Shown here: positions 1-61,330 of the stretch, one piece after another
Layout of the letters: each line of letters starts with the position of its first letter
How positions within the stretch are numbered: the first letter of the stretch is position 1
NCBI GenBank assembly: GCA_964016885.1
Contig: OZ024742.1
Coordinates: forward strand, 75,516,001-75,580,000
Length of the DNA: 64,000 bases
From: Eledone cirrhosa
Taxonomy: Eukaryota
Direction: 5' to 3'
Program-made: the position numbers and the translations under genes
Notes under the pieces: generated by a model
Databases searched by the model: none
Seen by the model: the letters and a program-made list of their open reading frames with translations, nothing else
What the model was told of the DNA's origin: nothing

Positions 1-118
1 TTATTCCAATTTCTAATTTCTGCCGGACCGGCAACCGCTCTTTCAAACCAGTTCCTGTACACAGCTAAGTATTCTATAAGTCTCTAGCTGTGTCATTCTC
101 GATAAAAGCACTGGATAT

Positions 119-161
119 GTAGTCCTGAAGATTTCTAATAAGAATGAAACGCGTAGATTAC
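119..161 (+). ncRNA. Minimal type I hammerhead ribozyme
   Basis: gtagtc-CTGAAGA-t ttct aata agaa t-GAAA-cgcg-TA-gattac; stem I gtagtc/gattac pairs; palindromic stem III. Confidence 0.85.
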
Positions 162-428
162 TTCCCTTGCTTTTATCGAGAATCTAATCGTAATACGTGA
201 CGTATTCTATTCTATAGCGATTAGGTCTTCAAAATGTTTATTATAAACATACAGAATATTTTCGAATATTCTATGTCTATATTCACATATATATCGCTAT
301 TTCAGAGCATTTATTCCAATTTCTAATTTCTGCCGGACCGGCAACCGCTCTTTCAAACCAGTTCCTGTACACAGCTAAGTATTCTATAAGTCTCTAGCTG
401 TGTCATTCTCGATAAAAGCACTGGATAT

Positions 429-471
429 GTAGTCCTGAAGATTTCTAATAAGAATGAAACGCGTAGATTAC
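429..471 (+). ncRNA. Minimal type I hammerhead ribozyme (second tandem copy)
   Basis: Identical to 119-161, 310 nt downstream. Confidence 0.85.
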
Positions 472-626
472 TTCCCTTGCTTTTATCAAGAATCTAATTG
501 TAATACGTGACGTATTCTATTCTATAGCGATTAGGTCTTCAAAATGTTTATTATAAACATACAGAATATTTTCGAATATTCTATGTCTATATTCACATAT
601 ATATCGCTATTTCAGAGCATTTATTC

Positions 627-628
<2 letters not shown>

Positions 629-707
<79 letters not shown>
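629..707. repeat. (TA)n microsatellite, representative of dozens in the window (e.g. 1046-1154, 6062-6130, 13296-13396, 33240-33435, 37550-38120)
   Basis: Direct reading. Confidence 0.95.
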
Positions 708-2941: not shown

Positions 2942-5432
2942 ATGTTGAGCAAACCGGAACTCAGAATCTCACTTAAGTCCATACCTATCCCGGACAGAAA
3001 GACATATCTCAACTCCTAATACAGTGTGTAAACTCCTTCATCCGAAGAATAAGAAGGAAAGCGTACCACTTTGACCGTGCGGTTGCTGCTGACGCCGGAA
3101 GTACAGCAAATAGATATGGATTTGCCACATGCAAGAACCTCCCACACAACATCCTGTTGGACCCTTTTGAGAAAGATCTATTCAACTTCGTCAGGAGCAT
3201 TAAGTTCAAAAAGCATTATAGACACAGGAATAACTTCCTCACTACATTATCAACAACTATAAAAACATTTTAAGATAGCAATCTCTTACATGTTATGTCT
3301 GACAAAACCAAAAATCTATACACAATGACTCCTGAAACTTACAACTCTTTCCTTCTTAAAGAACTCAATAAAAACTATAAAAAAACTACACCCTCCAGTG
3401 TAAACGTACTTAACCGAAAAGCCCAGGCTTTGGTTAAGGACTTGCATCTGGATAGATTTACCCACCCTTATGTACAACAACCCCAAGGTTCTCTCCCAAG
3501 GATCACAAGCCAAACTTTATAGAGAACCCATCCATTAGACTCATAAGCCCAACCACATCTGACCTGGGCCGCATCAGTAAGAACAACCTTGATAGGATAA
3601 TCCCTGGGCTACGGGATGATACCACCTACAAGTTGTGGTCCAACGCCGGCCAAGTCATCAGATGGATCTCCGATCTAGGGTCCAAGCAATCTATGAGGTT
3701 CTTCCAATTTGACATAGACAACTATTACGCGTCAATAACCCCCCGGAACTGCTCAACAAAGCACTAGCCCTAGCCACCACCAACTCGGACGTAACCAATA
3801 ATGAGATTAACATCATACTTATGGCTAGGCAGACTATCATTGAATTCAACGGAGCACTCTGGACTAGAAAAAGATAGAACAGACAACTTTGACATTACGA
3901 TGGGCTGAAGTGACTCCGCGCAAATCACCGATTTAGTTGGGATTTACCTATTACGTAACATCAGAGCCGAAATCCAACCCATGCAAGGCGGAATATACAG
4001 GGACGACGCCCTATTTGCGGTTCACAATTGCACTAATCGGGGAATCGATTTGCTAAAGAAACAATTACATAGATTCTTAAAAAATAACGGTCTCTCTATC
4101 ACCATCGAGCTGAACCATAAAGTAGTACACTTCCTAGACGTCACCTTTGATCTCAACAATAACCTTTATAACCCTTACCATAAACCAGGTGAAATACTCA
4201 CATATATTAGCCCACACTCTAACCAACCACCGGCAGTCATCAGGGCAGTAATCAAATCTATCTCCTATAGGATCTCATGCTATCAACAAATGAGGAGATA
4301 TTTATAAACCACGCACAATATTATAATAAGGCTCTCTCTGAATCTGGTTATAAACAATCAATTTATTACATACCTAAATGCCATAACACAGAAACTCACC
4401 ATAATAAACTTAACACTAGAACTAGAAATACCTTAGCATATAGCCAGATTCGCCGGAATTTTAGCAGTAACAGCACCTATACAGGGAACTTTAATGGTGG
4501 CAGCGGCCTGCTCCCCACTCCAAGTAGCAAACTAAACATCAACCCTAGAATAGGAATGAGAAATGGGATGACAAATAACAAATCCCCAGGTAATAATAAC
4601 CCTAGAAAGGCTCCTACCAACTCCTCTAGAACCCCTACAAGGAATAGACCTAGAAATATCACCTGGCTCAAGCCCCTATTCTCATCTAATCTACCCATTA
4701 ATATCCCCAAACGCTTCTTCTCTATCCTATCCAAACACTTCCCCCCAACCATAGATATTACAAACTCTTTAATAAAAATAACATTAAAATCTCATTCTCC
4801 ACGACACCTAACCTAGCTAGCCACATCGCGTTCAGTAACCATCATAAGCTAAGACAGTATAACTCCCACACCGCGGTACCACCACCCCTATCAAATACAC
4901 CAATAATTATTCTAGTAGCACACCTCCCCCATCTAATTCTTCTAGTACGGACCTACCGCTTAGGTTAAACAACCCTACTCTCACTAACCACAGAAGCAAC
5001 TGCAACTGCTGTTACCCCAATGCATGCCCATTAAATAGACACTGCCTGACACCCAACATAGTCTATAAATACACGGTTGAGACTGCTTCGAATACCAGCT
5101 CTTATATCGGGTCTACCTCTAACCCTTTTAAGGTACGCTATAACGCGGACTCTTTTTCCTTCCGAGACCCTAGCAACAGATGTTCGACATCGCTAGCTAG
5201 GCTCATTAAAAACCTTAAATTAAACAGCGTTCAACACTCAATAAAATGGGATATCGTGGCTAGGGCCCAACCGTTCAATGGACGAAGAAAATCTTGTGAT
5301 CTCTGTGTTACGGAAGCATATTACATAACTCGATCACGACTTCTACCGATTAACGATAGAACGGAGGTAACCGTTAGCTGTCAACATCGAAGGGCTAACA
5401 CCTTCGCCAACAGCATTTTTGACCCTACTTAG
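2942..5432 (+). pseudogene. Frameshifted PLE reverse transcriptase / GIY-YIG endonuclease ORF
   Basis: ISLKSIPIP N-terminus, FLQFDIDNYY, GIYRDDA, FLDVTFDL, NCNC..CPL..CL linker, VYKY..YIGST, CDLC, CQH motifs; several frameshifts and stops. Confidence 0.9.
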
Positions 5433-5807
5433 TCATGTAGCCCCATTTTTACTTGTAGCTAATAAGTTAAATTGCTATGAACAACTCGATAATTATAAGT
5501 TACCTCCCCTACATTGTCTCTCAATTAAAAAATTTAAAAACTAGCACTTAACTATAAACACTCACAATCTCTAATCTCTCGAGAAGTTACTTCCCCTGAA
5601 ACCACGCTCTAATTAGTAAGATAAATATGCCCTTTGGCAGCCAACTTGTTACCCATAGGCAAGTCTCACACAATGCAGCCTCAACAGATGAATACTGTTT
5701 GATTATGGCTGACAACTGATGCAACCAAGACACCATAGTAAAAACCAATATATGGAACATTATATTATGTAACATTATCCCATTATTTTAATTTATATTC
5801 CTTTGAA

Positions 5808-5927
5808 GTTCCGATGAGCCACTCTGTTTTTTAAATATGTCAATTATTTTCAACTGAACCAGATCAATTATGATATATAGTCATGTGATCCAGAAATATT
5901 ATATGGAGTAGCGAAACAATTGTAAAC
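5808..5927 (+). ncRNA. Hammerhead ribozyme variant in 3' pLTR
   Basis: gtt-CCGATGA-gccactc...gagtagc-GAAA-caattg-TA-aac. Confidence 0.7.
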
Positions 5928-6058
5928 GGACATTATTATTATTATTATTACTATTATCATTATTATTCTCTACATTCCTTACATCAAACTAAAATATGTT
6001 GACAATCTTTTAATAATGTCTTCCTTGTGAAGTTTGTGGTCTTGTTTTTCTTAACTAA

Positions 6059-6132
<74 letters not shown>

Positions 6133-6391
6133 GGAAAAAATGAAATTTCATTTCTCACTCTTAGTACGGCCGATACTTAAATATAAGTATGTATACGTAC
6201 ATATATATATGTATACAGACGTACAGTAGTATGTATATACATACATACATGTACACATATATATATGTACTTATTGGTTTACCGAACATTTATTATAATG
6301 CTCGGTCTGTTTGTAAACAAACAGCCCGAATTATTAGCCGTACAGTGTTCGGCAACCATCGTTACCATTTTGTTCAACACTGACAAAGGAA

Positions 6392-6432
6392 CGATGAACT
6401 AGTTTCTAGCTTATTAGCTGTCATCAGCACCG
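6392..6432 (-). ncRNA. Minimal type I hammerhead ribozyme
   Basis: Minus strand: cggtg-CTGATGA-cagct aata agcta-GAAA-ctag-TT-catcg. Confidence 0.85.
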
Positions 6433-6459
6433 TATACCTTCTTGTTAGTCGATTGAACG

Positions 6460-6517
6460 TTTGAAAATATATACTTTCCTCATGCATATTAACGGCTGAG
6501 CTGCCTAATTTGCATAT
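6460..6517 (-). promoter_or_regulatory. Putative octamer (ATGCAAAT) plus TATA promoter upstream of the HHR
   Basis: Minus strand: atatgcaaat-34 nt-tatatattttcaaa-32 nt-CTGATGA; the same layout occurs at 7975-8033. Confidence 0.45.
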
Positions 6518-7721
6518 CGAGTGAGTTATTCGCTCGGGCGTACCGAAAACGATAAATGGAAAAAATGAAATTTCATTTCTCACTCTTAGTACGGTAATTT
6601 CATTTCTCACTCTTAGTAGTGCAATACAAAAATAATGTTATTAGATTCACGTTTTGGATGATAGAGAGATAAAAAAAAGTTCAACATTTAGGAGTTTGCC
6701 CTTCGCCTGGCGAGTACAAGTAGAACAATTAAAAATATTTTTTAGAAGAAAAAAGAAGAGAAAAGGGGGAGGACAATTTGAGTGTGTATATTGCTTTTGA
6801 TGTTTTCAGTATATGACCATATATGTAGCTGTGTAGATCTATACATATTTCGTGAATGTATATTTGTGTGTCTGGCTGTATAAGCATTGTGTATGAGTGC
6901 GGTTTGTCAGTATATGTATTCAAATATAAAAGAAAATTGGCGACAAATAAGTATCGTTAAAACGAGATTCAACTTCAAGGTGGACAAGATAATTTTGATT
7001 TGAACAGAATAGAAGTTACAGTTGTGATGGCAACACAATAAACGTTCGGAGTGAAAAGCGTGTGTATATCTGCTGATGTGTGGCTGTATACGTGTTTGTT
7101 TAATAATAAGTGTTTATTATTAAGAGTTATTTTTATGTGTACGGTATCTAAGTGCCTGTATGTCAGTGTGGGCGCGTGGACGAAGGAGGGTACTTCATGG
7201 GATGTAGATGGCAGATCAGAGGAAGAAGGGTAGTGCAATAAGACCATAGATATGCGGTAGAGGTATTTAGAAAAAAATAAGCCTATGTTCACGCTGGCCG
7301 CGCGTGTCTGGGGATCCGGTGCAGGAAGCGAGTCCCACTACAGTGAGCAGACACGTGGATTGACTAGTCACTGAGGATGAGTTGCCGACTCAGATATTCC
7401 GTAGATGTTTATATACATATATAGGTTCGTCTTTACCCTGTCTGTATTTTTCGTTGTTGTAGTATTAATGTGACAATATGTCTCTGGTCGCATTATTTAT
7501 GGTGCCACTATTAAATAACTTCTTGTGTTCGCCCTGAGTAGAAACTTATTTGATTACTTTATCTTCGAGTGTTTTGTTAGAGTTATTGAAGAACGGGTGC
7601 TAATCTGCTACTTGCAGCGGCAACTTCGGTTGTATTCATTACTATTACACACACACATACACACACATACACATAAACACACACACACATACACACACAC
7701 ACACACACGCCACACACACAC

Positions 7722-7770
<49 letters not shown>

Positions 7771-7906
7771 TGTGTGTGTGTCTTTGAATTTTGCCTTTCT
7801 AAAGAAAGACAGTATGTTTATAAATAAACATTTAGAAAGTCATAGCTATGAATAACACTGACAGCCAACGCCACCAAGCGGTGCTCGGCAGAAGCAAAGG
7901 GGATAA

Positions 7907-7948
7907 TTGTCGATGCATTTCGAACTCAACTGGTTCTCGTCAGGACGA
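7907..7948 (-). ncRNA. Minimal type I hammerhead ribozyme
   Basis: Minus strand: tcgtc-CTGACGA-gaac cagttga gttc-GAAA-tgca-TC-gacaa. Confidence 0.85.
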
Positions 7949-7974
7949 TCCCTCCCCTCTTGCAACTGCGGGAC

Positions 7975-8033
7975 TTTGAAAATATATAGTATTTTCATCT
8001 GTGTAAATGAGGTGATTAATCTCATTTGCATAT
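7975..8033 (-). promoter_or_regulatory. Putative octamer plus TATA promoter upstream of the HHR
   Basis: Minus strand: atatgcaaat-35 nt-tatatattttcaaa-31 nt-CTGACGA. Confidence 0.45.
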
Positions 8034-8129
8034 GAAACTGTATAAGTTGGCTCAACTTAAAGTAGAATTAGAATTTAGCTCCAAACATAGCTGTATACAA
8101 AGATATGTATATATATTCGTATTATTTCT

Positions 8130-9040
8130 CAAATTAATTAAATAAAATAAAATTAAGGGAGTCATGTCCGAGACATGAGCCATATCCACCGTAGAATAAG
8201 TTCAAAGATTCCATTGAATAGATCCGAGCATTTTATATCAACTAGAAATTGATTGACATACATATATTTAAAATAAACACATGAAACAATCACAGGGGTA
8301 TAATTTGTAGTGTGTAATCACACATAGTTATGTAGGTAACTATTTAAAGTTTAACTAGAGCTTCAAATATTAGCTTTTTAAAAAATGATTAATCCTCCTT
8401 GTATATATTTCATTAAAGAAATATATTTCACCGTTCATCCGTAAAGTCACAGTAGTCAAATCTTGGATCTTCAGCAGGGGGGAAGATTTAACGATCTGTG
8501 CTTACACATCAAACCCAAATCTGCAAGTGAGCCATCGCACGTGTTGCATTTCTAAAACTACTAAAAACATGCTGGCGTCACCACATTGGCGTTGAATAGG
8601 GTGATCGACAGCTATAAACAGCATCCGGGTCCTTTCAACTTAATAAGCTCTACAATTAAGGAGCCGTTTAAATATCTAAAATTAATTAAATTAAATTAAA
8701 TTAAGGGAATCATGTCCGAGACATGCGCCATATCCACCTTAATTTAATTTAATTAAATTAATTTTAGATATATAAACGGCTCCTTAATTGTAGAGCTTAT
8801 TCAGTTGAAAGGACCCGGCTGCTATTTATAGCTGTCGATCACCCTATTCACGCCAATGTGGTGACGCTAGCATGTTGTTAGCAGTTTTAGAAATGCAACA
8901 CGTGCGATGGCTCACTCGCAGATTTCGATTTGATGTGTAAGCACAGATCGTTAAATCTTCCCCCTGCTGAACATCCAAGATTTGACTACTGTGACTTTAC
9001 GGATTAACGGTGAAATATATTTCTTTAATGAAATATATAT
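8130..9040. repeat. 548-bp unit with terminal direct repeat followed by an inverted partial copy (PLE pLTR-like architecture)
   Basis: aattaaggga.tcatgtccgagacatg.gccatatccacc at 8151 and 8699; 8739-9040 is the reverse complement of about 8402-8704. Confidence 0.8.
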
Positions 9041-17207: not shown

Positions 17208-17596
17208 ACGATAAATGGGAAAAAATGAAACGAAATTTCATTCTCACTCTTAGTACGGCTGTTACTTAAATATAAGTATGTATGCGTACATACATATATG
17301 TATACAGACTTACTTTCAGACGTTCAATCATCTGGCAGGAAGGTATACGGTGCTGACGATAGCTAATAATCTTGAAACTAGTACATCGTTCCTTTGCAGT
17401 GTTGAACAAAAGGGCAACGATGGTTGCTAAACACTGTACAGCTTAATTCGGGATGTTTGTTTACAAACAAACCGAGCATTATAATAAATGTTCGGTGAAT
17501 CCATACATACATATATATATGTGTGCAAGTATGTATATATATATACATACTAATGTACGTCTGTATACATATATGTATGTACGTATACATACTTAT
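17208..17596 (+). mobile_element. Second copy of the 6131 HHR cassette with a 5' inversion
   Basis: 17208-17309 matches 6131-6220 in the same orientation; 17311-17596 matches the reverse complement of about 6185-6470. Confidence 0.8.
17348..17388 (+). ncRNA. Minimal type I hammerhead ribozyme (stem II partly decayed)
   Basis: cggtg-CTGACGA-tagctaataatctt-GAAA-ctag-TA-catcg. Confidence 0.75.
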
Positions 17597-17679
17597 ATAT
17601 ATATATATATGTACGTATATTCATTAAAATAAACACCAAAGCAATCAACAGCCACCAGTTACAGAAAATGTTTACATTT

Positions 17680-26061: not shown

Positions 26062-26103
26062 GTAATTTCCTTTCCTCTTCCTTTTTACCTCTTCAGCACC
26101 AAC

Positions 26104-29100
26104 ATGGCCAATATAAGAGTTGGATGTGTGAATGCACGCGGCTTGGGGATGTCCTGGAAACAGGCCAAACTCTTAAATGACCTCAGGTCGCGCAGAGTGG
26201 ATGTAATGGTTATTTGCGAGTCCAGGATCAGCAGCGAGCGCCAACTGGCCCCCATCTTCGACGACTTTGAGATCTACGCATCTCTCTGTCAGCCGAGGGG
26301 TGGGGGTGGGGTTGTCGTTCTGCTGCGAAAACACCTGGGTCTTGCCACACAAAAGGTACACCTGGACCCGGAGGGTCGACTGGTGGTTTTAGACGTCGGC
26401 AGTGGTGAAGGTGGAGCGTTCAGGCTGGTGGCAGCGTATGCCCCATCTGGGACACCGCGACCGGACTTCTTTCGACGCCTGGAGAATTTCCTGGGAACGT
26501 CTCGCTCCTTGCTTTTAGTGGGGGACTGGAATGGTATCCTGGATGCACGTTGGGACTATGTACGGGCATGTCCCGATAGAGGGGGGTGTAACAGCCTCAA
26601 ACGATTAATCGGCCGATTTGATCTGGCCGATAGATATCGACTAGATTTTCCGACTGTGCCACGGTGGACGTGGAGTAATCGCAGCGGAACATCTAGGTCG
26701 TACCTAGATAGGTTCCTAGTTAGAAATAAGGATAGGGTCATATTAAGCTGTCCACAAATGTTCATGGTTGACTATTCGGATCACAAGATGGTGACCGGAG
26801 TGGTCAACCTTGATAGAACTCATAGACAGGGACCCGGTTACTGGAAGCTAAACTTGTCTTTACCGACAAACAAAACTTACAGTAAGCGGTTTAGCACACT
26901 AGTTAAGCAGCGTTTGACGGGGGCAATTGTCAACAACAGGTGGTGGGGCTCTCTCTCGAGAGAAATTAGAATAAAATCGACAGGTTTTAGTCGGGAATTA
27001 GCATCAGATACGAATAGAACTGAAAGGGAATTAACAAATAGAGTAGAAGAGGCGATTAGGAGTGGCAACGTGGCCGGCGTGCTGGCGTCAAGAACGGCCC
27101 TAGACCAGTTCTTTGATGCGAAGCACGAGGGCTGCGTTGTCAGGAGTAAAATACGTGCTCTGGGTAACGAGGGAGCCAAAGCTGTTACCTGGGCCCGAGT
27201 GACAGAGGCAAAAAGTGGAAACAAGTCCACGATTCGGTCTTTGAAGGACCAGGATGGACGCGTGATCCTTGAACCTGTGCGGATGAGCACGGCCTTTCAA
27301 CGGCGCTTTGCACGACTGCTCGGGAGGGACGGCGGGCCGGCTGGGGCCATGGATTTCGGTCCATACCTCGACGGTCTGGCGCGCCTCTCGGACGGGGAGG
27401 CGAAGTCCTGCGAGAGGCCGATTTCAGCCGCTGAAATAGGGGAAGTGCTGAGCCAATGCGGCAAACGCAAATCTCCGGGTCTCGATGGTCTACCATACGA
27501 ACTTTATGTAGCGATGCCGGGCTTGTTCTCCGGTCTTCTCGAGGCGGTCTACTAACACTGGCAACAGAACGGGAGAATTCCCAGTTCTGTGACCAAGGGC
27601 GTAGTCACGCTGGTGAGGAAGGACGAGAACAAGGGGGATGACATAGCTAACTTCAGGCCCATAACTCTGCTAAACACAGAGTTAAAGATTTTGGCCAAGG
27701 TGTTAGCGAACAGGTTGGCGCTTGTCGTCGGGAACATGGTGGGAGAAGCGCAGACATGCGCAATCCCGTCCAGGTCCATACACGACAACCTCCACCTCAT
27801 GCGATACATCGTAGAGAGGGTAGGGAACGAACCCGGCTTTGGTGGGGCCCCGATCAACTTGGATCAATCTAAAGCGTTCGATAGGGTTGACCATCGGTAC
27901 CTGGATGCGGTGCTCGCGGCGGCAGGCTTCGGACCCGTTTTCAGGGGCTGGATTGCTGCAATGCACAGCAGCAACACCGCTCGAGGGTCAAGGTGAACGG
28001 CTACCTCTCGGAGCCGTTCCAAATGCGCGATCTATTCCACAGGGATGCTCTCTCTCCTCCCTCCCGTATGTGCTGGCTCTCGAGCCACTACTGCGGAAGC
28101 TGGAGCTGTTGCAGGGCATCCCCTTGGAACCGGGATTGCGGAAATCGGTGTCGGCCTACGCCGATGACGTGACAGTAATGGTGTCGTGCGCCTCGGAATT
28201 CGGGCAGATCGGCACCTTACTGGAGGAATATGAAAGGTTCACAGGAGCCAAGCTGAACCGGGACAAGTCCGTCGGTTTGCAACTCGGGAAGTGGAGGGGC
28301 AAAACGATGCCCTCCGACGGCATCGTCGGAAGCTGGACGGAGGGACCGGTGAAGCTGCTCGGGGTCTGGTTCGGACCGGACCTCCCGGTGGAGAAAAACT
28401 GGGACGAGGTAACGGGCAAGGTGTTTGCACTCGCCCAGAAGTGGGCCGAGTGCAAACTATCCCTGAAAGGTCGAGCGGAGGTGGCGAACGCTTATATAGC
28501 GTCCGTCATCTACTACCTCTTGACCGTCGTGCCTTGCCCAGAGAAAACATTCGCCAAAATGGAGCGCGCGCTCTTCCGATTTCTTTGAAGAAGCGGGCTC
28601 CTTTGGTGAGAAGATCCATCTGCTGTCAACACCCTTCGAACGGAGGGCTGGGGATGCCGTGGCTGACGATGCGTAGATACGCATTAAGGCTACGGCACCT
28701 ACAGGTATTCCTCACCGGTCAGCCGGTGTGGGCCCTGTTCGTGAGGCGAGCCTTTCCGAGACTCGTCTCACTCACCGAGCTGCAATCCTGGGTCAAGCAA
28801 AGACCGAGAAAAGTGGGCGACTGGCACATTGAATGTGCCCAGGCGCTCATGGACCTCTGGCAAGCGGATCCGGCAATCAGTGAAGACTCAACCTCAACAT
28901 TCTATAGAGGGTTGGTGCGCAGTAAGTGCGACGACGCTCTCGGAGAGGCTCTGGGCATGGAGGAAGACGAGCTGACCAGTCTGTTCGGTAGGACGTTTGG
29001 CACGGGACTGATGGACAACTTCCAAAATTCCCTGGCTTGGCAATGTTACCGAGGAGCTCTACCCGTTCGGGACAAGCTCTACAGACACGGGCGCCCGGGT

Positions 29101-29538
29101 AGGGACCCCTCGAAGAAGATCTGTCCAAGATGCGTGCGTGACGAGGAAACCGTCGCACACGCATTCGTACACTGCCCGGGCGTTGCTGACCTGTGGGGCT
29201 ATGTAGAACGACTACTGTCGCGGGTGGGACCAATCCGGTTGACCACCGAGAACATTGTCACAATCAAACCGCCTCTCCCTTTCAAAAACGAAAGAGAGGC
29301 GGTTTTCATCTGTGTAATAGCCATGGCGAAAGAAGTTATATGGTGGACAAGGTTGAAAGGGCTGAGGTCAGACACCTTTCTCTCCGGCCAACAACTGGTC
29401 TTTTTTTTCAAGTACCACTTTAGAAGAAGGATCAGAATGGAGAGAGAGATGCTCTGCCCCAGCAAGTTTTATGAAAGATGGGTGAAAGTAGCGAGAATGG
29501 CCCGAGTGAATGGGCCTTCTCTCTATATCAGCCTGTAG
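26104..29538 (+). pseudogene. Tx1 ORF2 (apurinic-type endonuclease, reverse transcriptase, C-terminal Cys motif) with one stop and about 2 frameshifts
   Basis: NARGL, GDWN, YLDRF, SDH, KSPGLDG, FRPITLLN, KAFDRV, QGCSLS, AYADD, CPRC..ETVAH...C. Confidence 0.92.
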
Positions 29539-36820: not shown

Positions 36821-37143
36821 ATATAAGATCAAAAGATGGTTAAAAGAGTTACATGCGCATTTCAAAAACAAATATCATCATGCGATGACATTTGCGTTTT
36901 CCTCAGATAAAATAGGGAGACATGATATGAAGGTTAAAAAACACTTGTGAATAGTGCAGTTTTAAATCAACATATGATATGTTGATTTAAAACTGCACTA
37001 TTCACAAGTGTTTTTTAACCTTCATATCATGTCTCCTATTTTATCTGACGAAAACGCAAATGTCATCGCATGATGATATTTGTTTTTGAAATGCGCATAA
37101 TAAAATACATAGAACTCTTTTAACCATCTTTTGATCTTATATA
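36821..37143. repeat. Near-perfect palindrome of about 320 bp (fold-back HHR cassette) centred near 36976
   Basis: Arms are reverse complements apart from a small indel. Confidence 0.9.
37040..37104 (+). ncRNA. Type I hammerhead ribozyme
   Basis: tttat-CTGACGA-16-bp stem II with gcat loop-GAAA-tgcgca-TA-ataaa; the mirror copy at 36853-36912 lacks the 3' strand of stem I. Confidence 0.85.
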
Positions 37144-52399: not shown

Positions 52400-55300
52400 G
52401 AAACTTATGCTTATTCATTTTTGGGGCCCTTTCTGCCCGTGTGTTTGTTTGTTTATGTGTGTCCGTATACAGCGTGGTGATAATGCCACACAAGGGCCAA
52501 GTGGGATGGCGGATCCACAGATGGCTATGTAAACATACATTCGCCAATCCTCGATAAGAGTGTTTAAATATCGAACATAAACAGTTCGAATAACGGTGAA
52601 ATGGAGACTAGAACGTCATGTGACAGACTCTCACCCAACAGGTGCCCCCTGGCTCAGCAGCAGGAACCTGACTGTCAACCAAATACTGCTGATGTTGGAG
52701 GAAGAAGAAGAAGGAAAGGGGCCAGAACCAACTGGACGAAAGAATTGAATAGAACTGTTATGCAATGCTACCTGAAAAGTAACCCCAAGGAGAGGGGCTA
52801 CAGGAGACGGATGCATAACATCTGGAACGAGATTGGTTTATTTAAATTAGATGAACAAAAATTGGCCGGGCAGGCTCGGGTAATAAGAACTAATGGGTGG
52901 ATAAGCGAGCTGGAACTGGAGGAACTGAGCAGAGAGAATGGCTTGGAGATGGCGGGTGTAGTATGCCAGACAAGCGAGCCGGCGGGAAATGAAGGTGAGG
53001 AGGTCCTGAGAACGGAGGAACCACCCGAAGCAGACAATGATCTGAATACTGAGATAAATAATACCTGGAACAGAGATACGGCCACTGAGGAGATGAATGC
53101 TGACGGGCTAGGACAAGATTCGGTTGACATCCTAAATTTAGTGGTAGATGAGTTGAACAATGATAGTGGGAGACCTATGAACCTAAGATTTGTAGACAGG
53201 AAAAAGTTAAAAGAAACAACAGCTAAGGTAAACAAAGTCATCCCATACCTTGAGGCGAGGAGTCTTCACCAGTGCAACAATATCCTCAAAGCAACAGCAA
53301 ATACGGTGAGGAAACTACTTGGTATAAAAGCGAGAGGAAACAACAGACAAGAAAGAGCAGAGCCGTGGTGGAAGAAGCGACTGAGTGGGCAAATCGGGGA
53401 AATGAGAAATGACATAGGAAAGCTTGAGTCACTACTGAATGGGACACTAAAAAACATAGGCACTAAAAATAGACTGGAAATAAAATACAAAACTAGGAGT
53501 AAAAAGCTAAATATTATCATAGAGGAATTGAAGCAACGCATTGTAGCAAAGAGTGCCAAAATCAGGCGATACGAGAACAGAGTCAGTCAGTATAAACAGA
53601 ACCGCATGTTCGACAACAACCAGAAGATGCTGTTTGGACAGCTTGAGGGGAAAGAAAGAGGCAACGACTTGATCCCTGGGGCGGAACAAGCTAAAACATT
53701 CTGGAGAGGAATATGGGAGAAGGATGTTAGACACAATGCCCAGGCAGGGTGGATTGAGACAGTACAGAGGGAGATCGGTGAGCAGGCACAGCAACAGACT
53801 GATTTGAGTATCACAGTTGAAACTCTTAAGGGGCAAGCCAAAAAACTAACCAACTGGAAATCACCAGGCCCAGATGGTGTGCAGGGGTATTGGATTAAAC
53901 ATTTAACATCCCTCCACCCGAAGCTGACGGCCATGTTCAATGACTGCTTGGTGTCGGGTGAGGTGCCAGAGTGGTTGACAAAAGGTACCACAGTTCTGAT
54001 AATGAAAGACCGAATCAAGGGTAATGATGTTACCAACTATAGACCTATCACATGTCTGCCCGTAATGTGGAAACTGTTGACGAGCATTGTGTCTGAGGAA
54101 ATCTACCATCACCTCCACACAAACAACTTGTTGCCGGACGAACAGAAAGGATGCCGAAAGAAGTCACGTGGTACAAAGGACCAGTTGCTTATTGATAAGA
54201 TGGTAATGGGGAATTGCAGGAGGAGACACACTGATCTTGCCATGGGATGGATAGACTACAGAAAGGCATTTGACATGGTGCCTCATTCCTGGATCACCAA
54301 AAGCCTGGAGATCTTCAGGGTGGCAGATAACATCAGACAGTTGCTGGGCAGGAGTATGGGGTCCTGGGAGACAGAGTTGACATCAACTGGAGTATCCTTG
54401 GGAAGCGTGAAGATCAAGAGAGGTATCTTCCAGGGAGATAGCCTGTCCCCTCTGTTGTTTGTCCTTGCCCTGATGCCCTTGACCATTATGCTGCGAAAAG
54501 TGAGAGCAGGATACAAGTTGGGAAGGGGAGAGCTTACCATCAATCACCTCCTCTTCATGGACGATCTTAAGCTCTTCGGGAAAAGTGAGAAGGAGTTGGA
54601 TGTGCTTATTGACACTGTCCGTATTTTCAGCAGTGATATATGTATGCAGTTTGGTATTGGTAAATGTGGAGTCATTGTGATGAGGAGGGGTAGGTTGAGC
54701 AGAAGTAACGGGATCCAGATACCAACAGGTGAGATGATAAAGGAAATTGACTCTGAGGAAGGATACAAGTATTTGGGCGTTCTGGAGGCTGATGGCATAA
54801 AGAACAAAAAAATGAAGGAATTGTTAAGAACTGAATACATTCGGAGAGTAAGGAGCGTATTGAAGTCACATCTGAACAGCAGAAATGCCATAAGCGCAGT
54901 AAATTCCCGAGCTGTGTCTATTATTAGGTACAGTGCGGGAATTCTGAGATGGAATGTTGCTGAACAAAAAGAAATGGATAGGAAGACTAGGAAGCTATTG
55001 ACTATCTACAACATGTTCCACAAGAGGAGTGATGTCGATAGACTCTACCTAAGGAGATCTGAGGGTGGAAGAGGTCTTATCAGCATAGAGGACTGTGTTC
55101 AGATGGAGAAAAACAACCTATACAAATACGTGACCTATAGTAAGGAGCCAATGCTCAGAGCTGTACTGAAGGAGGGGACAGTAGGCCAGGGGATATCCAA
55201 GGAGGAAATAACATCAAGGAGGAAGAGCAGCCTTAAGGGAAAATCCCTTCATAGTACCTTCTTTGAGAAAACTGAATTTAGAGATCCACAGACATGGAAC

Positions 55301-56100
55301 TGGTTGAGAAGAGGAGACCTCAAAAAGGCTACAGAAGGAATGCTAATGGCTGCGCAGGAGCAGGCCCTCAAAACGAAGTGGTTGAAGCACCATATCTACA
55401 AGGAGGAGGCTAGCCCACTGTGCAGGATCTGTGGAGAGAGAGAGGAGACTGTGGCTCACATTGTGTCCGAGTGTAAACACCTAGCCCAGACCCACTATAA
55501 GGGCTGGAGACACGATGTGATGGGCAGGGTGATCCACTGGCACCTGTGCAAAGTAAACAATCTACCACATTCTGAGAAATGGTATGAGCATAGGCCAGAG
55601 GCGGTGATGGAGAACAGTCAGGTGAAGGTGCTGTGGGATTTTAGGATACAGACGGACAAAAAACTGGAACACAATAGACCTGACCTGGTGGTTGTGGACA
55701 AAGAAAAAAGATCGTGCCTGATTGTGGATGTGGCCTGCCCGTTCGACACGAGAGTGCAAGAGAAGGAGAGGGAGAAAATTAACCGATACCAGGACCTAAA
55801 GTGGGAGGTGAAAAGGATTTGGAACTGCCATGAAGTCAAAGTGATCCCGATTGTCATAGGCGCACTGGGGACTATCTCCAAAGGTTTCCAGGGATGGTTA
55901 AAGAAAATCGGCCCCTTCACGCTTTTTGGAACGCTTCAAAAGGCATGCTTGCTTGGAACGGCAAGAACCCTCCGATACGTCCTGAATATCTGAGGCTGCA
56001 GGTAGTGGCTTGATATTCAATCCAACGGACTTTCCAGTTAACCAACATCAATGACTGAGATTCAAGGAATAACAATAACAATAATAATAATAATAATAAT
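52400..56100 (+). mobile_element. R4/Dong-clade non-LTR retrotransposon, apparently intact, ending in an (AAT)n tail (5' boundary approximate)
   Basis: Single long ORF, short 3' UTR, (AAT)n at 56068-56100. Confidence 0.88.
52601..55993 (+). CDS. Reverse transcriptase with CCHC zinc finger and restriction-like endonuclease (R4/Dong clade), 1130 aa
   Basis: WT.E.N..VM.CY..S.P..RGYR N-terminus, KSPGPDG, YRPITCL, DYRKAFD, GIFQGDSLSP, LFMDD, CRIC...ETVAH...C, RPDLVV..DVACP...K..RY. Confidence 0.93.
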   Translation: METRTSCDRLSPNRCPLAQQQEPDCQPNTADVGGRRRRKGARTNWTKELNRTVMQCYLKSNPKERGYRRRMHNIWNEIGLFKLDEQKLAGQARVIRTNGWISELELEELSRENGLEMAGVVCQTSEPAGNEGEEVLRTEEPPEADNDLNTEINNTWNRDTATEEMNADGLGQDSVDILNLVVDELNNDSGRPMNLRFVDRKKLKETTAKVNKVIPYLEARSLHQCNNILKATANTVRKLLGIKARGNNRQERAEPWWKKRLSGQIGEMRNDIGKLESLLNGTLKNIGTKNRLEIKYKTRSKKLNIIIEELKQRIVAKSAKIRRYENRVSQYKQNRMFDNNQKMLFGQLEGKERGNDLIPGAEQAKTFWRGIWEKDVRHNAQAGWIETVQREIGEQAQQQTDLSITVETLKGQAKKLTNWKSPGPDGVQGYWIKHLTSLHPKLTAMFNDCLVSGEVPEWLTKGTTVLIMKDRIKGNDVTNYRPITCLPVMWKLLTSIVSEEIYHHLHTNNLLPDEQKGCRKKSRGTKDQLLIDKMVMGNCRRRHTDLAMGWIDYRKAFDMVPHSWITKSLEIFRVADNIRQLLGRSMGSWETELTSTGVSLGSVKIKRGIFQGDSLSPLLFVLALMPLTIMLRKVRAGYKLGRGELTINHLLFMDDLKLFGKSEKELDVLIDTVRIFSSDICMQFGIGKCGVIVMRRGRLSRSNGIQIPTGEMIKEIDSEEGYKYLGVLEADGIKNKKMKELLRTEYIRRVRSVLKSHLNSRNAISAVNSRAVSIIRYSAGILRWNVAEQKEMDRKTRKLLTIYNMFHKRSDVDRLYLRRSEGGRGLISIEDCVQMEKNNLYKYVTYSKEPMLRAVLKEGTVGQGISKEEITSRRKSSLKGKSLHSTFFEKTEFRDPQTWNWLRRGDLKKATEGMLMAAQEQALKTKWLKHHIYKEEASPLCRICGEREETVAHIVSECKHLAQTHYKGWRHDVMGRVIHWHLCKVNNLPHSEKWYEHRPEAVMENSQVKVLWDFRIQTDKKLEHNRPDLVVVDKEKRSCLIVDVACPFDTRVQEKEREKINRYQDLKWEVKRIWNCHEVKVIPIVIGALGTISKGFQGWLKKIGPFTLFGTLQKACLLGTARTLRYVLNI

Positions 56101-56149: not shown

Positions 56150-59100
56150 AATGATTTGATTTCTTTATTAGCCACAAGGGTTTACATAAAGTAGAGATTA
56201 AGGACAGTGCAGGACAATACAGGACGGTACAAATGGGCATTTCTGCGTGTAAAGAACAAAAACAGAGGATGTAACAAAAAAATAACAATGAAAAATTCCC
56301 CAATAGGGGGGAGACTTCGGAGCAACATTTGTGGAGAAAGCCCAGTAAAAGGCCACAGTGACCCTGACCACCAAGGGGAGTGCCCTCTCCCAGTTTTCGA
56401 CCTTTAATTTACAGTTATATACTCCGAGTAGGCCCATTCACTCGGCCCATTCTTGCTTCTCTCACCCATCTTTCAAGAAAATTCTGGGAAGAGAGCACTT
56501 CCCTCTCTATCCTGATTTTCCTTTTCAAATGAAATTTGAAAAGGTTAATCAGGGCATCACCGAAGAGGTAAGTGCTCGTCTTCAGCCCTTTCAAACGTGT
56601 CCACCATACTATCGCTTTCGCCATGGCGAAGGAAGAGGGCGGGGCCATCCTCACGATGGACTCAGATGATAGCCGGATCCGTCCTACACGCGACAGCAGT
56701 TGTTCGACATAAACCCACAAGTCAGCAATTTTCGGACACTGGACGAGTGCGTGCAGGACAGTTTCGTCGCCCTGCGTGCATCTCGGACATGTACGACTGA
56801 CGGCACCTCCATGCCTGTAGAGTTTATCCCGAACTGGCAAGGCTCCTCGGTAGCACTGCCAGGCCAGAGATTTCTGGAAGTTGTCCATAGGTCCCGGCCC
56901 GAAAGTTCTTCCGAAGAGATTGGCTAGTTGATTTTCGTCGACGCCTAGAGTTTCCCCAAGTACTTCGTCGCTCTTCCCCTCCACTAAACCTCTATAGAAC
57001 GCCGAGGTGTAGTTTCCACTGATCACATTGCCTGATTGTTCGAGGGCTGTGAGCGCCTGAAGACATTCCAGTCTCCAGGCGCTCCCTCTCGGTCTTCGCT
57101 TGACCCAGGACTGCAGCTCCATCAAGGAAACGAGCTGGGGAAATAGGTGTCTAGCAAACGGCTACCACACCTGATCACCGTCGAGGAAGAGGTGGAGATG
57201 TCGTAGCCTGAGCGCGTGTCTGCGCATCATCAGCCACGGCATTCCCAGCCCTCCACGTAGCGGGTGTTGACAGCAGATGAACCGCCTGACCATCGGAGCG
57301 CGTCCCTTCCACAAAAAGCGAAAGGAGCAAACGCTCCAGCGCAGTCAGGCGGGGCTTAGGACAAGGTACGACGGTCAGGCAGTAGCAGATGACAGACGCG
57401 ATGTACGCGTTAGCCACCTCCGCTCGACCTTTCAGGGATAGCTTCCTCTCGGCCCATTTCTGGATGAGAGAAGCCACCCTGATCGTCACCTCGTCCTAGT
57501 TTTTGTCCGTCTGGAGGTCCGGACCGAACCAGAGCCCTAGCAATATAACCGGTCCGTCCGACGACGCCTTTGGACGGTATGGACCTGCCTCTCCAGGTGC
57601 CGAGCTGCAGGCCCACTGACATTTCCTGGTAGATCGTTACTCCTGTCACCGCCTCTCATTCTCTTAGTGTAGTGCCGATCGCCTCGATGTGTTTGGCGTT
57701 CGACACTACTCCGGTGACATCGTCCGCATATGTTGACACGGATCTTCCGCAACCCAGTTCGCGCCGGACCCCCATCAACATCTCCAGTGAAGTAATGGCT
57801 CGAAAGTCAATACGTACAAGAGGGACGAGAGGGGGATCCTTGGCGGACCGAGCGCATGATGTTGAACGGTTCCGAAAGGTGACCGTTCACTCTCACTACA
57901 GAGCAGATGTCGCTGTGCATGGCAGCGATCCAGGCTCTGAAGACGGGCCCAAAGCCAGCCGCCCTCAGGACTGCCGCTAGGTAACGATGGTCGACCCTAT
58001 CGAAAGCTTTCGACTGATATAAATTTATCAAGGACCCACCCGTGCCAGGTTCCCTAGCTACCCTCTCTACGATGTATCGCATGAGGTGGAGGTTGTCGTG
58101 GATGGATCTGTCGGGAATGGCGCATGTCTGCGCCTCTCCCACCAGACCACCAACGACAAGCGCCAACCTCTTTGCTAGCACCTTGGCCAAAATCTTGAAC
58201 TCTGTGTTTAGCAAAGTTATGGTCCTGAAATTACCTATGTTATCCCCTTTGTTCGGATCCTTTGTGAGCAGCGTCACCGCTCCTCGGCTCACATGCTGGG
58301 AATTCTGCCAGTTACAGTAGACGTCCGCCAAGAGGCCTCCGAACAAGTCTGGCATCTGGACGTAAAGTTCATATGGCAGACTATCCAAACCAGGCGATTT
58401 ACCCCTTGTGCAGCCAGTCATTGCATTCCGTACTTCAGCGGCTATTATCGGCTTTTCGCAACACTCCGTCTCAGTGGCCGAGAGCCTCGGAGATCCATCG
58501 AGGTAGATACTAAAGTTCATCCCTCGATCCGGCCCGCCGCTGCCCCCGAACAGCTGAGCGAAGTGTCGCTGAAAAGCTTCATATTTTGCTCGGCATCGAG
58601 ATGCGCCCGTCGTGGTCGACCAAATACCGGATCGTGGCTTTGTTGCCACGACGCGCCTCCGCCACTCGGGCCCATTGAACGGCTTTTGTCCCCTCGTGTC
58701 TGAGAGCACGCACCCTAGCTCTGACAACGCAGCCTTCGTGCTTTGCATCGAAGAATTGGTCAAGGGCCAATTTCGCCGCAAGTACGTCGGTCTCGATGCC
58801 TTTGCTAAGCGCCTCGTCTAATTTTCTAACTAGTTCTCCCTCTGCTCTATTTTTCTCTATAGCTAAAGCCTGACTAAACCTAATGGACTCTATTCTAATC
58901 GCTCTTTTCAGAGCAAACCACCACTTGTTGTTGACGATGGCCCCCATCAACGCTCGCTTAACTAGTTCGCTAATCCGGTCTCTGTAGGCCTTGGGCGCTG
59001 GCAAGGACGCGTTTAGCTTCCAGTAGCCGGGTCCTCGTCTATGAAGCCTATCTAAGTGAAGTACACAGATCACGAATTTGTGGTCCCGTGTAGCTGACTA

Positions 59101-59834: not shown

Positions 59835-61330
59835 TCGATCCCCAGTAAAAACGTTTAGCGATGACATCAAGATAGAGTTTGGACTTGACAAGTGTGCAAA
59901 AGCCACTTTCAAGAAGGGGAAGCTTGTCAACTCAGGCTCAGTTGAATTGGATTCTGAAACAATCATAAAGGAACTTGAGTAGGAACAAACCTATAAATAC
60001 TTAGGATTAAGGCTCTGGCATACAGCATGCAAGTATGAAAGAGAGGATACGGAAAGAATGTTACAGGAGAGTACGTGCAGTTCTGAGAACAGAACTAAAC
60101 GCTCGTAACAAGGTGCTAGCCATAAATTCCTTGGCAGTCCCAGTTGTCAATTATAGCTTCGGTGTGTTGAACTGGAATATGAGTGAAATCAAAAGAATCG
60201 ACAACAAAGTCCGTACGCTACTGACCTGTAATAGGATGCACCACCCAAAAGCAGATGTGGATCGTTTTTACCTTCCTAGAACTCTGGGAGGCCGTGGCCT
60301 GATCCAATTTGAACTTGCTTACAAGACCACCATCATTGGACTGGCCAAATACCTTGAAACAACTAACGACTGTATGCTGAAACTTGTTTAAAAGCTTGAG
60401 AGAAGTAAGAAGCTTCATTCTATCTTGAAGGAGAGCAACAAATATGCTGCTGATCTCATGCTTGATACCCAGGCTGGACAGACTAAAGAAACTGTTGCAA
60501 CTGATGCTGCTAGGCACATAAAATCACTGGCAAAAGCAAAAGGGCAAGGACAATTAGCATCAACTTGGCAGCAGAAACCTCTGCATGGCAAATATGTGGC
60601 CGTAGCAAACAAGCTGATGTTGATCAAAAGAACACCCATCAGTGGCTACGTAGTTCAGGGCTAAAGGCGGAGAGTGAAGGCTTCATCTTAGCTGCCCAAG
60701 ATCAAAGCTTATTGACTCGTATTTATCAGGCCAATGAGATGAGAAACGGAATAAACTCAAAGTGCCCATTCTGCAATGCTGGGGTTGAAACAGTGGATCA
60801 CTTAGTCTCTGGATGTAAAGTTTTAGCACCAGTAGAATACAAATATAGACATGAGAGAGTTGGCCAATGTTTAAACTGGGTAATATGTCGGCATTACAAA
60901 ATAAAGGCTGAAGACAAGTGTTACAACCATCACCCTGCGGCTGTAACTGAAGGAGAAAAAGTAACAATTCTCTGGGACTTTCCTGTACATACTGACAGGA
61001 CCATAAAAGCAAGTAGACCTGACATCATTATAAAAGATCAACATAACAAGGTCCGTTTGTTGATAGATATGAGCATCACATGTGATCACAATATCGCGGA
61101 AAAAGAATTTGACAAGCTACGAAAATATAAAGATCTGCTTATTGAAATTGAGAAAATGTGGCACCTCAAGGCCGTTACAAAACCAGTGATTGGGGGAGGA
61201 CTGGGAATGATCAGGAAAGGAACAGAACAATATTTGCGAATGATTCCTGGTTTACCCTCTCTGCACGACGTGCCAAAAATTGTTTTTACCGGTACTGCAC
61301 ACGTATTGAGAAAAACACTATCTCTGTAAG
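59835..61330 (+). pseudogene. 5'-truncated, decayed R4/Dong-clade element of a second family
   Basis: FSDDIKIEFGLDKCA, DVDRFYLPR..GGRGL, CPFC...ETVDH...C, RPDIII motifs. Confidence 0.85.

Follow-up and report, generated by a model that had tools for sequence, protein, structure and literature searches.

Tandem hammerhead retrozymes of Eledone cirrhosa with a likely internal snRNA-type promoter

How a short repeat that encodes no protein comes to be transcribed is the question raised by two small cassettes in the genome of Eledone cirrhosa. They lie in the stretch of 64,000 nucleotides analyzed here (assembly GCA_964016885.1, contig OZ024742.1, positions 75,516,001 to 75,580,000; hereafter the window). 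Both are ORF-less, with no frame of 100 amino acids or more within either one, and both carry on the minus strand an octamer, a TATA element and a hammerhead ribozyme, in that order (Table 1). An initial annotation of the window had taken them for self-transcribing noncoding retroelements with a promoter of the U6, 7SK and H1 kind. The reading that we favor, with moderate confidence, is that the cassettes are tandem hammerhead non-LTR retrozymes with a likely internal snRNA-type promoter, more likely served by Pol II, and with a replication cycle that is pieced together from sequence.

Two cassettes and their repeat families

The octamer-TATA-hammerhead layout and its distances are present in both cassettes as first described, and a loose pattern for the layout matches twice in the window and not once in any of 100 shuffles. 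The cassettes had been called divergent, which is true of their sequences; they are co-oriented and do not stand head to head. The exact 14-mer TATATATTTTCAAA and the spacing of 31 or 32 nt to the ribozyme core had been regarded as features kept in common, and these do not hold as family traits. A strict pattern that includes the full 14-mer finds 41 places genome-wide, so that the 14-mer is a rare variant. Most family B copies have, after TATATATTTTC and between two TTTTC tracts, 10 nt that are absent from cassette B: among 30 family B loci collected without regard to the promoter, the distance from TATA to core is 56 nt in 13 of the 15 with a readable TATA, and the missing segment accounts for the 45 nt of the window copy. 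Given this deletion and the rarity of the 14-mer, the identity of the 14-mer in A and B and the 31/32 spacing are partly coincidence.

A genome-wide pattern search, which the initial annotation had proposed, gives 19,398 matches in the 3.0-Gb genome (pattern counts, not checked copies) against one for a reversed control pattern. The layout occurs in at least four diverged families (A-D), two of which, C and D, were revealed by variant patterns. Tandem units measure 430-508 nt in A arrays and 334-344 nt in B, with 425 nt for the A unit of the window, and head-to-tail arrays reach six units; the two cassettes of the window are dispersed copies that each amount to about 1.1 units. Six A arrays together hold 15 complete units, and every one of these has both box and ribozyme. 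Among the first 100 of the cassettes listed, 27 are tandem and 73 single and dispersed. Copy number, tandem units and the absence of an ORF bear out the proposal of a large family of noncoding retroelements. Alternating unit variants in one array had suggested a dimer as template, and this was rejected: the alternation is confined to units 1-4 and is missing in other arrays.

It had been held that the proposal would fall if the motifs were no better conserved than their flanks. Among old copies of one family the comparison is indeed flat, yet it is uninformative because old copies decay evenly; the valid comparison is the one across families. There, identity is 0.92 for the box and 0.95 for the TATA versus 0.27-0.46 for the spacers, the former two values being inflated because some representatives were found via those motifs. 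When family D is collected by its ribozyme only, 15 of 30 loci still have the box (12 of 27 when three previously known loci are set aside), and in family B copies collected by their body alone the box lies 42-46 nt before the TATA in 10 of 15 readable loci. In old family D copies (L205, L206, L233 and L245), a second copy of box plus core often lies about 40 nt upstream. Families A, B, D and a further one, E, have in common a short palindromic hairpin, rich in AT, within the unit body (window 6285-6301 and 7814-7831 on the minus strand, 233-251 on the plus strand), which is a candidate recognition site for the mobilizing enzyme.

Table 1. Positions of the repeats, promoter elements and ribozymes in the window
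Feature	Position	Strand	Remarks
Family E retrozyme	1..630	+	310-nt tandem, cores at 125 and 435; octamer box absent
Broken Penelope-like element with 3' terminal repeat	3456..6052	+	RT and endonuclease-like pieces in separate frames
Family A retrozyme copy	6131..6617	-	425-nt unit plus terminal redundancy; (TA)n tract at end
A, terminal redundancy	6590-6556, again 6165-6131	-	
A, short duplicated piece	6617-6596	-	
A, T6 run in unit	6560..6565, again 6140-6135	-	~45 nt upstream of octamer box
A, octamer ATGCAAAT	6515-6508	-	34 nt to 14-mer
A, octamer box, 11-mer ATGCAAATTAG	6505..6515	-	42 nt before TATA; same 11-mer in host U6 and tRNA-Sec promoters
A, YCAG PSE-like core	6495..6499	-	TCAGCC from 6499; 26 nt before TATA, as for the core of host Pol II snRNA genes
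A, 14-mer TATATATTTTCAAA	6473-6460	-	32 nt to CTGATGA
A, TATA box	6468..6473	-	
A, extended helix I	6372..6458	-	GTTCAA 6458-6453 (upstream of predicted start) pairs with TTGAAC 6377-6372
A, predicted start	6443 (C|A)	-	30 nt after TATA, inferred from host spacing
A, type I hammerhead	6392..6432	-	stem I CGGTG/CATCG, core 6427-6421, GAAA 6406-6403
A, hammerhead core CTGATGA	6427-6421	-	
A, hammerhead stem III	predicted cut after 6397	-	one pair, palindromic loop CTAG
Family B retrozyme copy	7781..8133	-	~1.06 units of 334-344-nt repeat; 5' boundary approximate; ends in (CA)n tract
B, octamer ATGCAAAT	8031-8024	-	35 nt to 14-mer
B, octamer box, 11-mer ATGCAAATGAG	8021..8031	-	43 nt before TATA; same 11-mer in host U6 (L031) and MRP promoters
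B, PSE-like core TCACC	8011..8015	-	from 8015; 27 nt before TATA
B, TATA region	7975..7988	-	same 14-mer as A (TATATATTTTCAAA); 31 nt to core
B, type I hammerhead	7907..7948	-	core 7943-7937, GAAA 7921-7918, palindromic loop TGCA, predicted cut after 7912
B, hammerhead core CTGACGA	7943-7937	-	
Third copy, family A	17210..17597	+	5'-truncated just past TATA, inverted 5' piece, promoter gone; boundaries approximate

Promoter boxes of the repeats and of host snRNA genes

Host genes were collected with Rfam models and their upstream DNA was then read; their polymerase classes follow established knowledge. The Pol III class comprises seven distinct promoters (three U6, U6atac, MRP and two tRNA-Sec) and the Pol II class 17 (U1, U2, U4, U5, U12 and U3), with the anchor placed at -30 in U4b, U1e, U2a and U5a, which have no clear TATA. 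Left out were the U6 loci L044 and L045 and five of the six U6atac loci read (both boxes missing, retroposed in appearance), locus L037, which has an insertion in its promoter, and array members of near-identical sequence; neither class includes RNase P or SRP genes.

An ATG(C/G)(A/T)AAT(T/G)AG box lies 46-48 nt before the TATA (at about -30) in all seven Pol III-class promoters, none of which has YCAG at TATA -24 to -29. YCAG is found 25-28 nt before the TATA in 15 of the 17 Pol II-class promoters (those of U1, U2, U4, U5 and U12), and most promoters of this class, including those of U1 and U2, have a TATA as well. The octamer box occurs in one of the 17, U3, as the box-like ATGTAAAATAG with two mismatches, 42 nt before the TATA. 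The code of the host thus places the box of the Pol III class at -76 to -79 and, in the Pol II class, YCAG at -55 to -58, AATTA near -90 and a distal TTAYYTCCCTT at -257 to -288, with a 3' box near AAAATCAGA. Host U1, U2, U4, U5 and U6 genes stand in tandem arrays. The RNase P RNA gene (L172, G000:C24:12936134) has a Pol II-class TCAGT core and two distal motifs and, unlike MRP, no octamer box; in E. cirrhosa it is possibly transcribed by Pol II.

With the host U6 class the repeats share an ATGC(A/T)AAT(T/G)AG box and a TATA at a predicted -30, and to this extent the comparison with U6-type promoters suggested at the outset is borne out by an identical 11-mer. It fails on geometry: in most representatives the box lies 42-43 nt before the TATA rather than 46-48, and there is a PSE-like core, which the U6 class lacks. 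That core, YCA[GC] at 26-28 nt before the TATA, is present in 22 of 31 element representatives versus 8.5% in shuffles, and it was part of no search pattern. After dereplication below 75% identity, 15 of 21 representatives, which average 59% identity, have CA[GC] at one offset, the next best offset having 4. A metagenome scan served as a control only: YCA[GC] was at the core position in six of 120 chance matches, and the two matches that passed a loose stem filter, neither of them with a PSE core, were chance-like. The core of the repeats corresponds to the YCAG found 25-28 nt before the TATA in host U1, U2, U4, U5, U12 and U3, and their box spacing to that of the U3 box-like 11-mer. Judged from the DNA, the boxes of the repeats match real host promoter elements, apparently as a hybrid of the two classes with a geometry nearest that of U3. 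The snRNA-type character first ascribed to the boxes is therefore upheld, the octamer and YCAG core coinciding with boxes of host snRNA-gene promoters. A plain Pol III promoter of the U6, 7SK or H1 type is not, because the repeats agree with the host Pol II class in PSE core and box spacing, and U1 and U2 here have a TATA too.

In other respects the repeats depart from the host genes. U1-U5 have no box but do have AATTA near -90, and most U1 and U2 have the distal TTAYYTCCCTT; in families A-D, as read by eye, AATTA near -90 and the distal motif near -260 are not evident or are degenerate. Unlike the host snRNA genes, A and B units have no host-type 3' box, the best score being 2.1 bits versus 13-22 for 10 of 11 host boxes, which were scored in-sample. 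Host spacing predicts a start about 16 nt before the ribozyme core in family A, in keeping with the earlier proposal of a start shortly before the ribozyme. A YA/CG step is found at TATA +29/30 in 17 of the 21 representatives but equally at +11, so that the predicted start is only weakly marked in the sequence.

The core and box spacing, the lack of a 3' box and an inherited T run all favor Pol II, as does a precedent from insects, in which, according to the available part of one report, the 3' half of the PSE and not the TATA can set the polymerase (PMC1761439). Pol II would on these grounds be a good deal likelier than Pol III. The T run, a T6 or T7 in the unit upstream of the box, is present in 16 of the 29 readable A copies (of 44), and Pol III would need to transcribe past it; since four of six young arrays have no T run of five or more, the terminator argument against Pol III is not general. 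It is in our estimate unlikely that the same retrozymes use the same internal promoter as a compact U6/H1-like type 3 promoter for Pol III, or for both polymerases, and that multimers come from variants without long T runs, such as those four arrays, or from leaky termination. The 11-mer box does characterize the host U6, U6atac, MRP and tRNA-Sec promoters (7/7), but in the repeats it lies 4-5 nt nearer to the TATA than in any of these seven promoters and is accompanied by a PSE core of the Pol II type. Many single A copies stop just past the T run, as a Pol III terminator would have it, but copy ends cluster also at other AT-rich sites beside microsatellites, which fits priming rather than termination, and the T6 or T7 upstream of the promoter has been inherited in the 16 A copies. 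A schistosome hammerhead satellite with its own promoter is reported to be transcribed by Pol III in the part of PMC2220036 available to us, which does not describe that promoter as of snRNA type.

Ribozymes, predicted circles and insertion

Both hammerheads of the window are complete, of type I, with core, stems I-III and NUH site, and have a one-pair stem III with a palindromic loop. By anchored counting across families, stem I pairing is 0.80 for native strands versus 0.48 for crossed ones (25 distinct strand pairs), loop III is palindromic in 19 of 32 cores, and five of 37 ribozyme rows have no intact core. With either gathering or E-value thresholds, Rfam detects no hammerhead, its only matches being miRNA noise driven by microsatellites. 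Locally, the ribozymes fold with no unusual stability (z -0.8 to -1.5); the predicted circular monomer folds of A and B are strongly paired (z -5.6 to -8.8, 30 shuffles each), which in A is partly owed to palindromic AT tracts. The one-pair stem III and palindromic loop suggest that the active form may be dimeric. By their hammerhead, short many-copy tandem unit, lack of a coding frame and predicted paired circle, the repeats are classed here as retrozymes. Two more hammerhead families in the window, at 37045 (+)/36906 (-) and 41453 (+)/38374 (-), have a long stem II and a 6-nt palindromic loop III, and the octamer-TATA cassette is absent from them.

Alternatively, the boxes could be kept for folding, the octamer being paired in a predicted hairpin in A1, or be the relic of one captured snRNA-gene promoter, with transcription coming only from flanking read-through. 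The octamer's predicted partner, however, varies by family while the box is constant, and in B the TATA region is largely unpaired. The families look related, and shared boxes can be inherited, but boxes and spacing have persisted across representatives as diverged as those described above. Hammerhead families without the cassette do exist at 37045 and 41453; family E, on the other hand, has a second layout, which matches U1 at four positions. We consider a relic or a folding role improbable, and it is likely that the repeats transcribe themselves into circular RNAs rather than depend on neighboring read-through.

The initial annotation had given the ribozyme the task of trimming the 5' end of the transcript. 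An RNA that starts after the TATA would not contain its own promoter, yet the copies carry one inside the repeat unit, so that the template must span the whole unit; and the pairing of helix I in A extends as far as 15 nt upstream of the predicted start and so needs a multimer or a circle. Both points indicate that the ribozyme likely turns multimers into circles instead of trimming a 5' end. They also make it very improbable that the repeats are linear SINE-like elements or solo Penelope-like terminal repeats in which the ribozyme only trims the RNA. Such elements would explain why single dispersed copies prevail among the first 100 listed and why insertions have Penelope-like marks. They would not explain why copies exceed one unit and are circularly permuted, or why as many as six units form an array; the terminal repeat of the Penelope-like element in the window, too, differs in sequence and has no cassette.

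The retrozyme reading can be put as a cycle. Transcription would begin within a tandem array, about 30 nt after the TATA of one unit, and the polymerase, meeting no 3' box, would read on through the next units and their promoters. As in the retrozyme cycle already published, hammerheads would then excise monomers, here of about 340-500 nt, and a host ligase would close these into circles with extensive pairing. From a primer at (TA)n DNA, a reverse transcriptase of the Penelope-like kind would copy the circle for more than one round; the products would be partial tandems, permuted and inverted at their 5' ends. A single copy, as both of those in the window are, might give a transcript but would not pass on the promoter.

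The insertions look Penelope-made. Inverted 5' copies and microsatellite targets are described for Penelope-like elements (PMC8557442, as far as its available part goes). Among family B loci, to which the tally was restricted because internal palindromes confound it in family A, an inverted piece is found at the 5' end in 15 of 29 and at the 3' end in none of 29, and the 3' end lies at a microsatellite in 19 of 29. Neighboring cassette pairs are divergent in eight cases and convergent in none. The earlier proposal that the neighboring Penelope-like elements mobilize the cassettes is supported in so far as the insertions bear such marks, but not for the neighbors themselves, since these are broken and have no sequence in common with the repeats. 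Cassette A sits, in opposite orientation, in the (TA)n tract that ends the Penelope-like element beside it. That element belongs to an abundant family (60,557 first-look candidates) whose copies likewise end in (TA)n, which explains the position of cassette A at the end of one. The identification of this neighbor, which has no match in Pfam or PDB, rests on motifs seen by eye, the terminal repeat and Atlas look-alikes. In 20 loci of one Penelope-like family, the 3' repeat has no cassette, and no sequence is shared with the retrozyme units beyond microsatellites and co-inserted copies. This 3' repeat (window 5433-6052, plus strand, with a partial copy at 2400-2710; other copies are L278-L296) can be folded much like a hammerhead in which stem II carries a long insertion; the core reads CCGATGA at 5811 and CTGATGA in L292 and L293, and GAAA-CAATTG-TA follows near 5913. 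The repeat also has two copies of the host distal snRNA motif, at 5500 and 5587.

Known retrozymes and a second promoter layout

The metazoan non-LTR retrozymes of Cervera and de la Pena 2020 (PMC7229834, here and below from the part available) resemble the present repeats in being short ORF-less tandems of low GC with a type I hammerhead and a strongly paired predicted circle, and in having Penelope-like elements in the same genome. With the axolotl motifs of that report they share a stem III of one pair closed by a palindromic tetraloop, as well as a U-U mismatch where stem II begins at its base. The repeats differ in having a recognizable internal snRNA-type promoter and, in family A, units of 430-508 nt, which reach beyond the 150-450 nt given there; cleavage and circles were shown in that study and are predicted for the repeats here. 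A 2020 review states, in its available part, that metazoan retrozymes seem to harbor no promoters, and invokes read-through (PMC7761336), a statement that the promoter layout read here contradicts. The plant LTR retrozyme NbRZ1 has a promoter of its own, that of the LTR, and an snRNA type is not described in the part of the report available (PMC12029980). Our literature search, which covered few subscription papers, found no description of repeats of this kind with a compact octamer-PSE-TATA promoter.

An internal snRNA-type promoter as such is not without precedent, contrary to what had first been supposed. The promoter of newt satellite 2 reportedly consists of an octamer and a PSE. This hammerhead tandem repeat was reported to have an internal snRNA-type Pol II promoter by Coats, Zhang and Epstein 1994, according to the available part of PMC2220036. 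Compared with what is related there, the promoter of the present repeats is compact, with the box directly upstream of the PSE core, no more than 75 nt from the start, and with a TATA, and it mixes marks of two host classes, in several families and two layouts. The 1994 newt result is in this way linked to a second, very large set of repeats. Circles of animal retrozymes are reported to be very abundant, and the likely promoter bears on how they come to be transcribed. Since the promoter can be read against host snRNA genes, exact mutations and a predicted start site can be specified. The comparison also exposes an unusual host code, in which both classes have a TATA and box and core are specific to a class. 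Boxes of this kind, tens of thousands in number, could tap the snRNA transcription factors of the host.

The second layout is that of family E. Relative to its predicted start, this family has the distal box at -257, AATT at -90, CCAG at -57 and TATAAG at -30, a U1-like layout in which the distal motif overlaps the ribozyme stem I strand of the unit before it. Since the three variants that were read hardly differ, the layout counts as one post hoc observation. Family E makes up most of the first 100 listed of the 18,196 matches to a ribozyme-only pattern, which also catches B. We put forward tentatively, as an idea that may well prove wrong, that the grammar of host snRNA promoters was captured in two forms, the compact hybrid of families A-D (about 19,000 matches) and the U1-like form of family E, with a distal enhancer in the ribozyme helix I of the repeat before (the bulk of about 18,000 further matches). 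If so, internal snRNA-type promoters would be a general and overlooked route to high expression of animal retrozymes, and the hybrid promoter would be a natural test of what decides between Pol II and Pol III.

Family E copies (window 1-630; L297-L326) form very young arrays of 310-311-nt units, often inverted around a center. Elsewhere in the window, a long inverted duplication at 8480-9000, centered near 8730, is part of another repeat, and fragments of non-LTR retrotransposons at 26062-29538, 52568-55993, 56415-58817 and 60514-61329, with endonuclease, RT and zf-RVT matches in Pfam, include an RT frame of 1141 amino acids.
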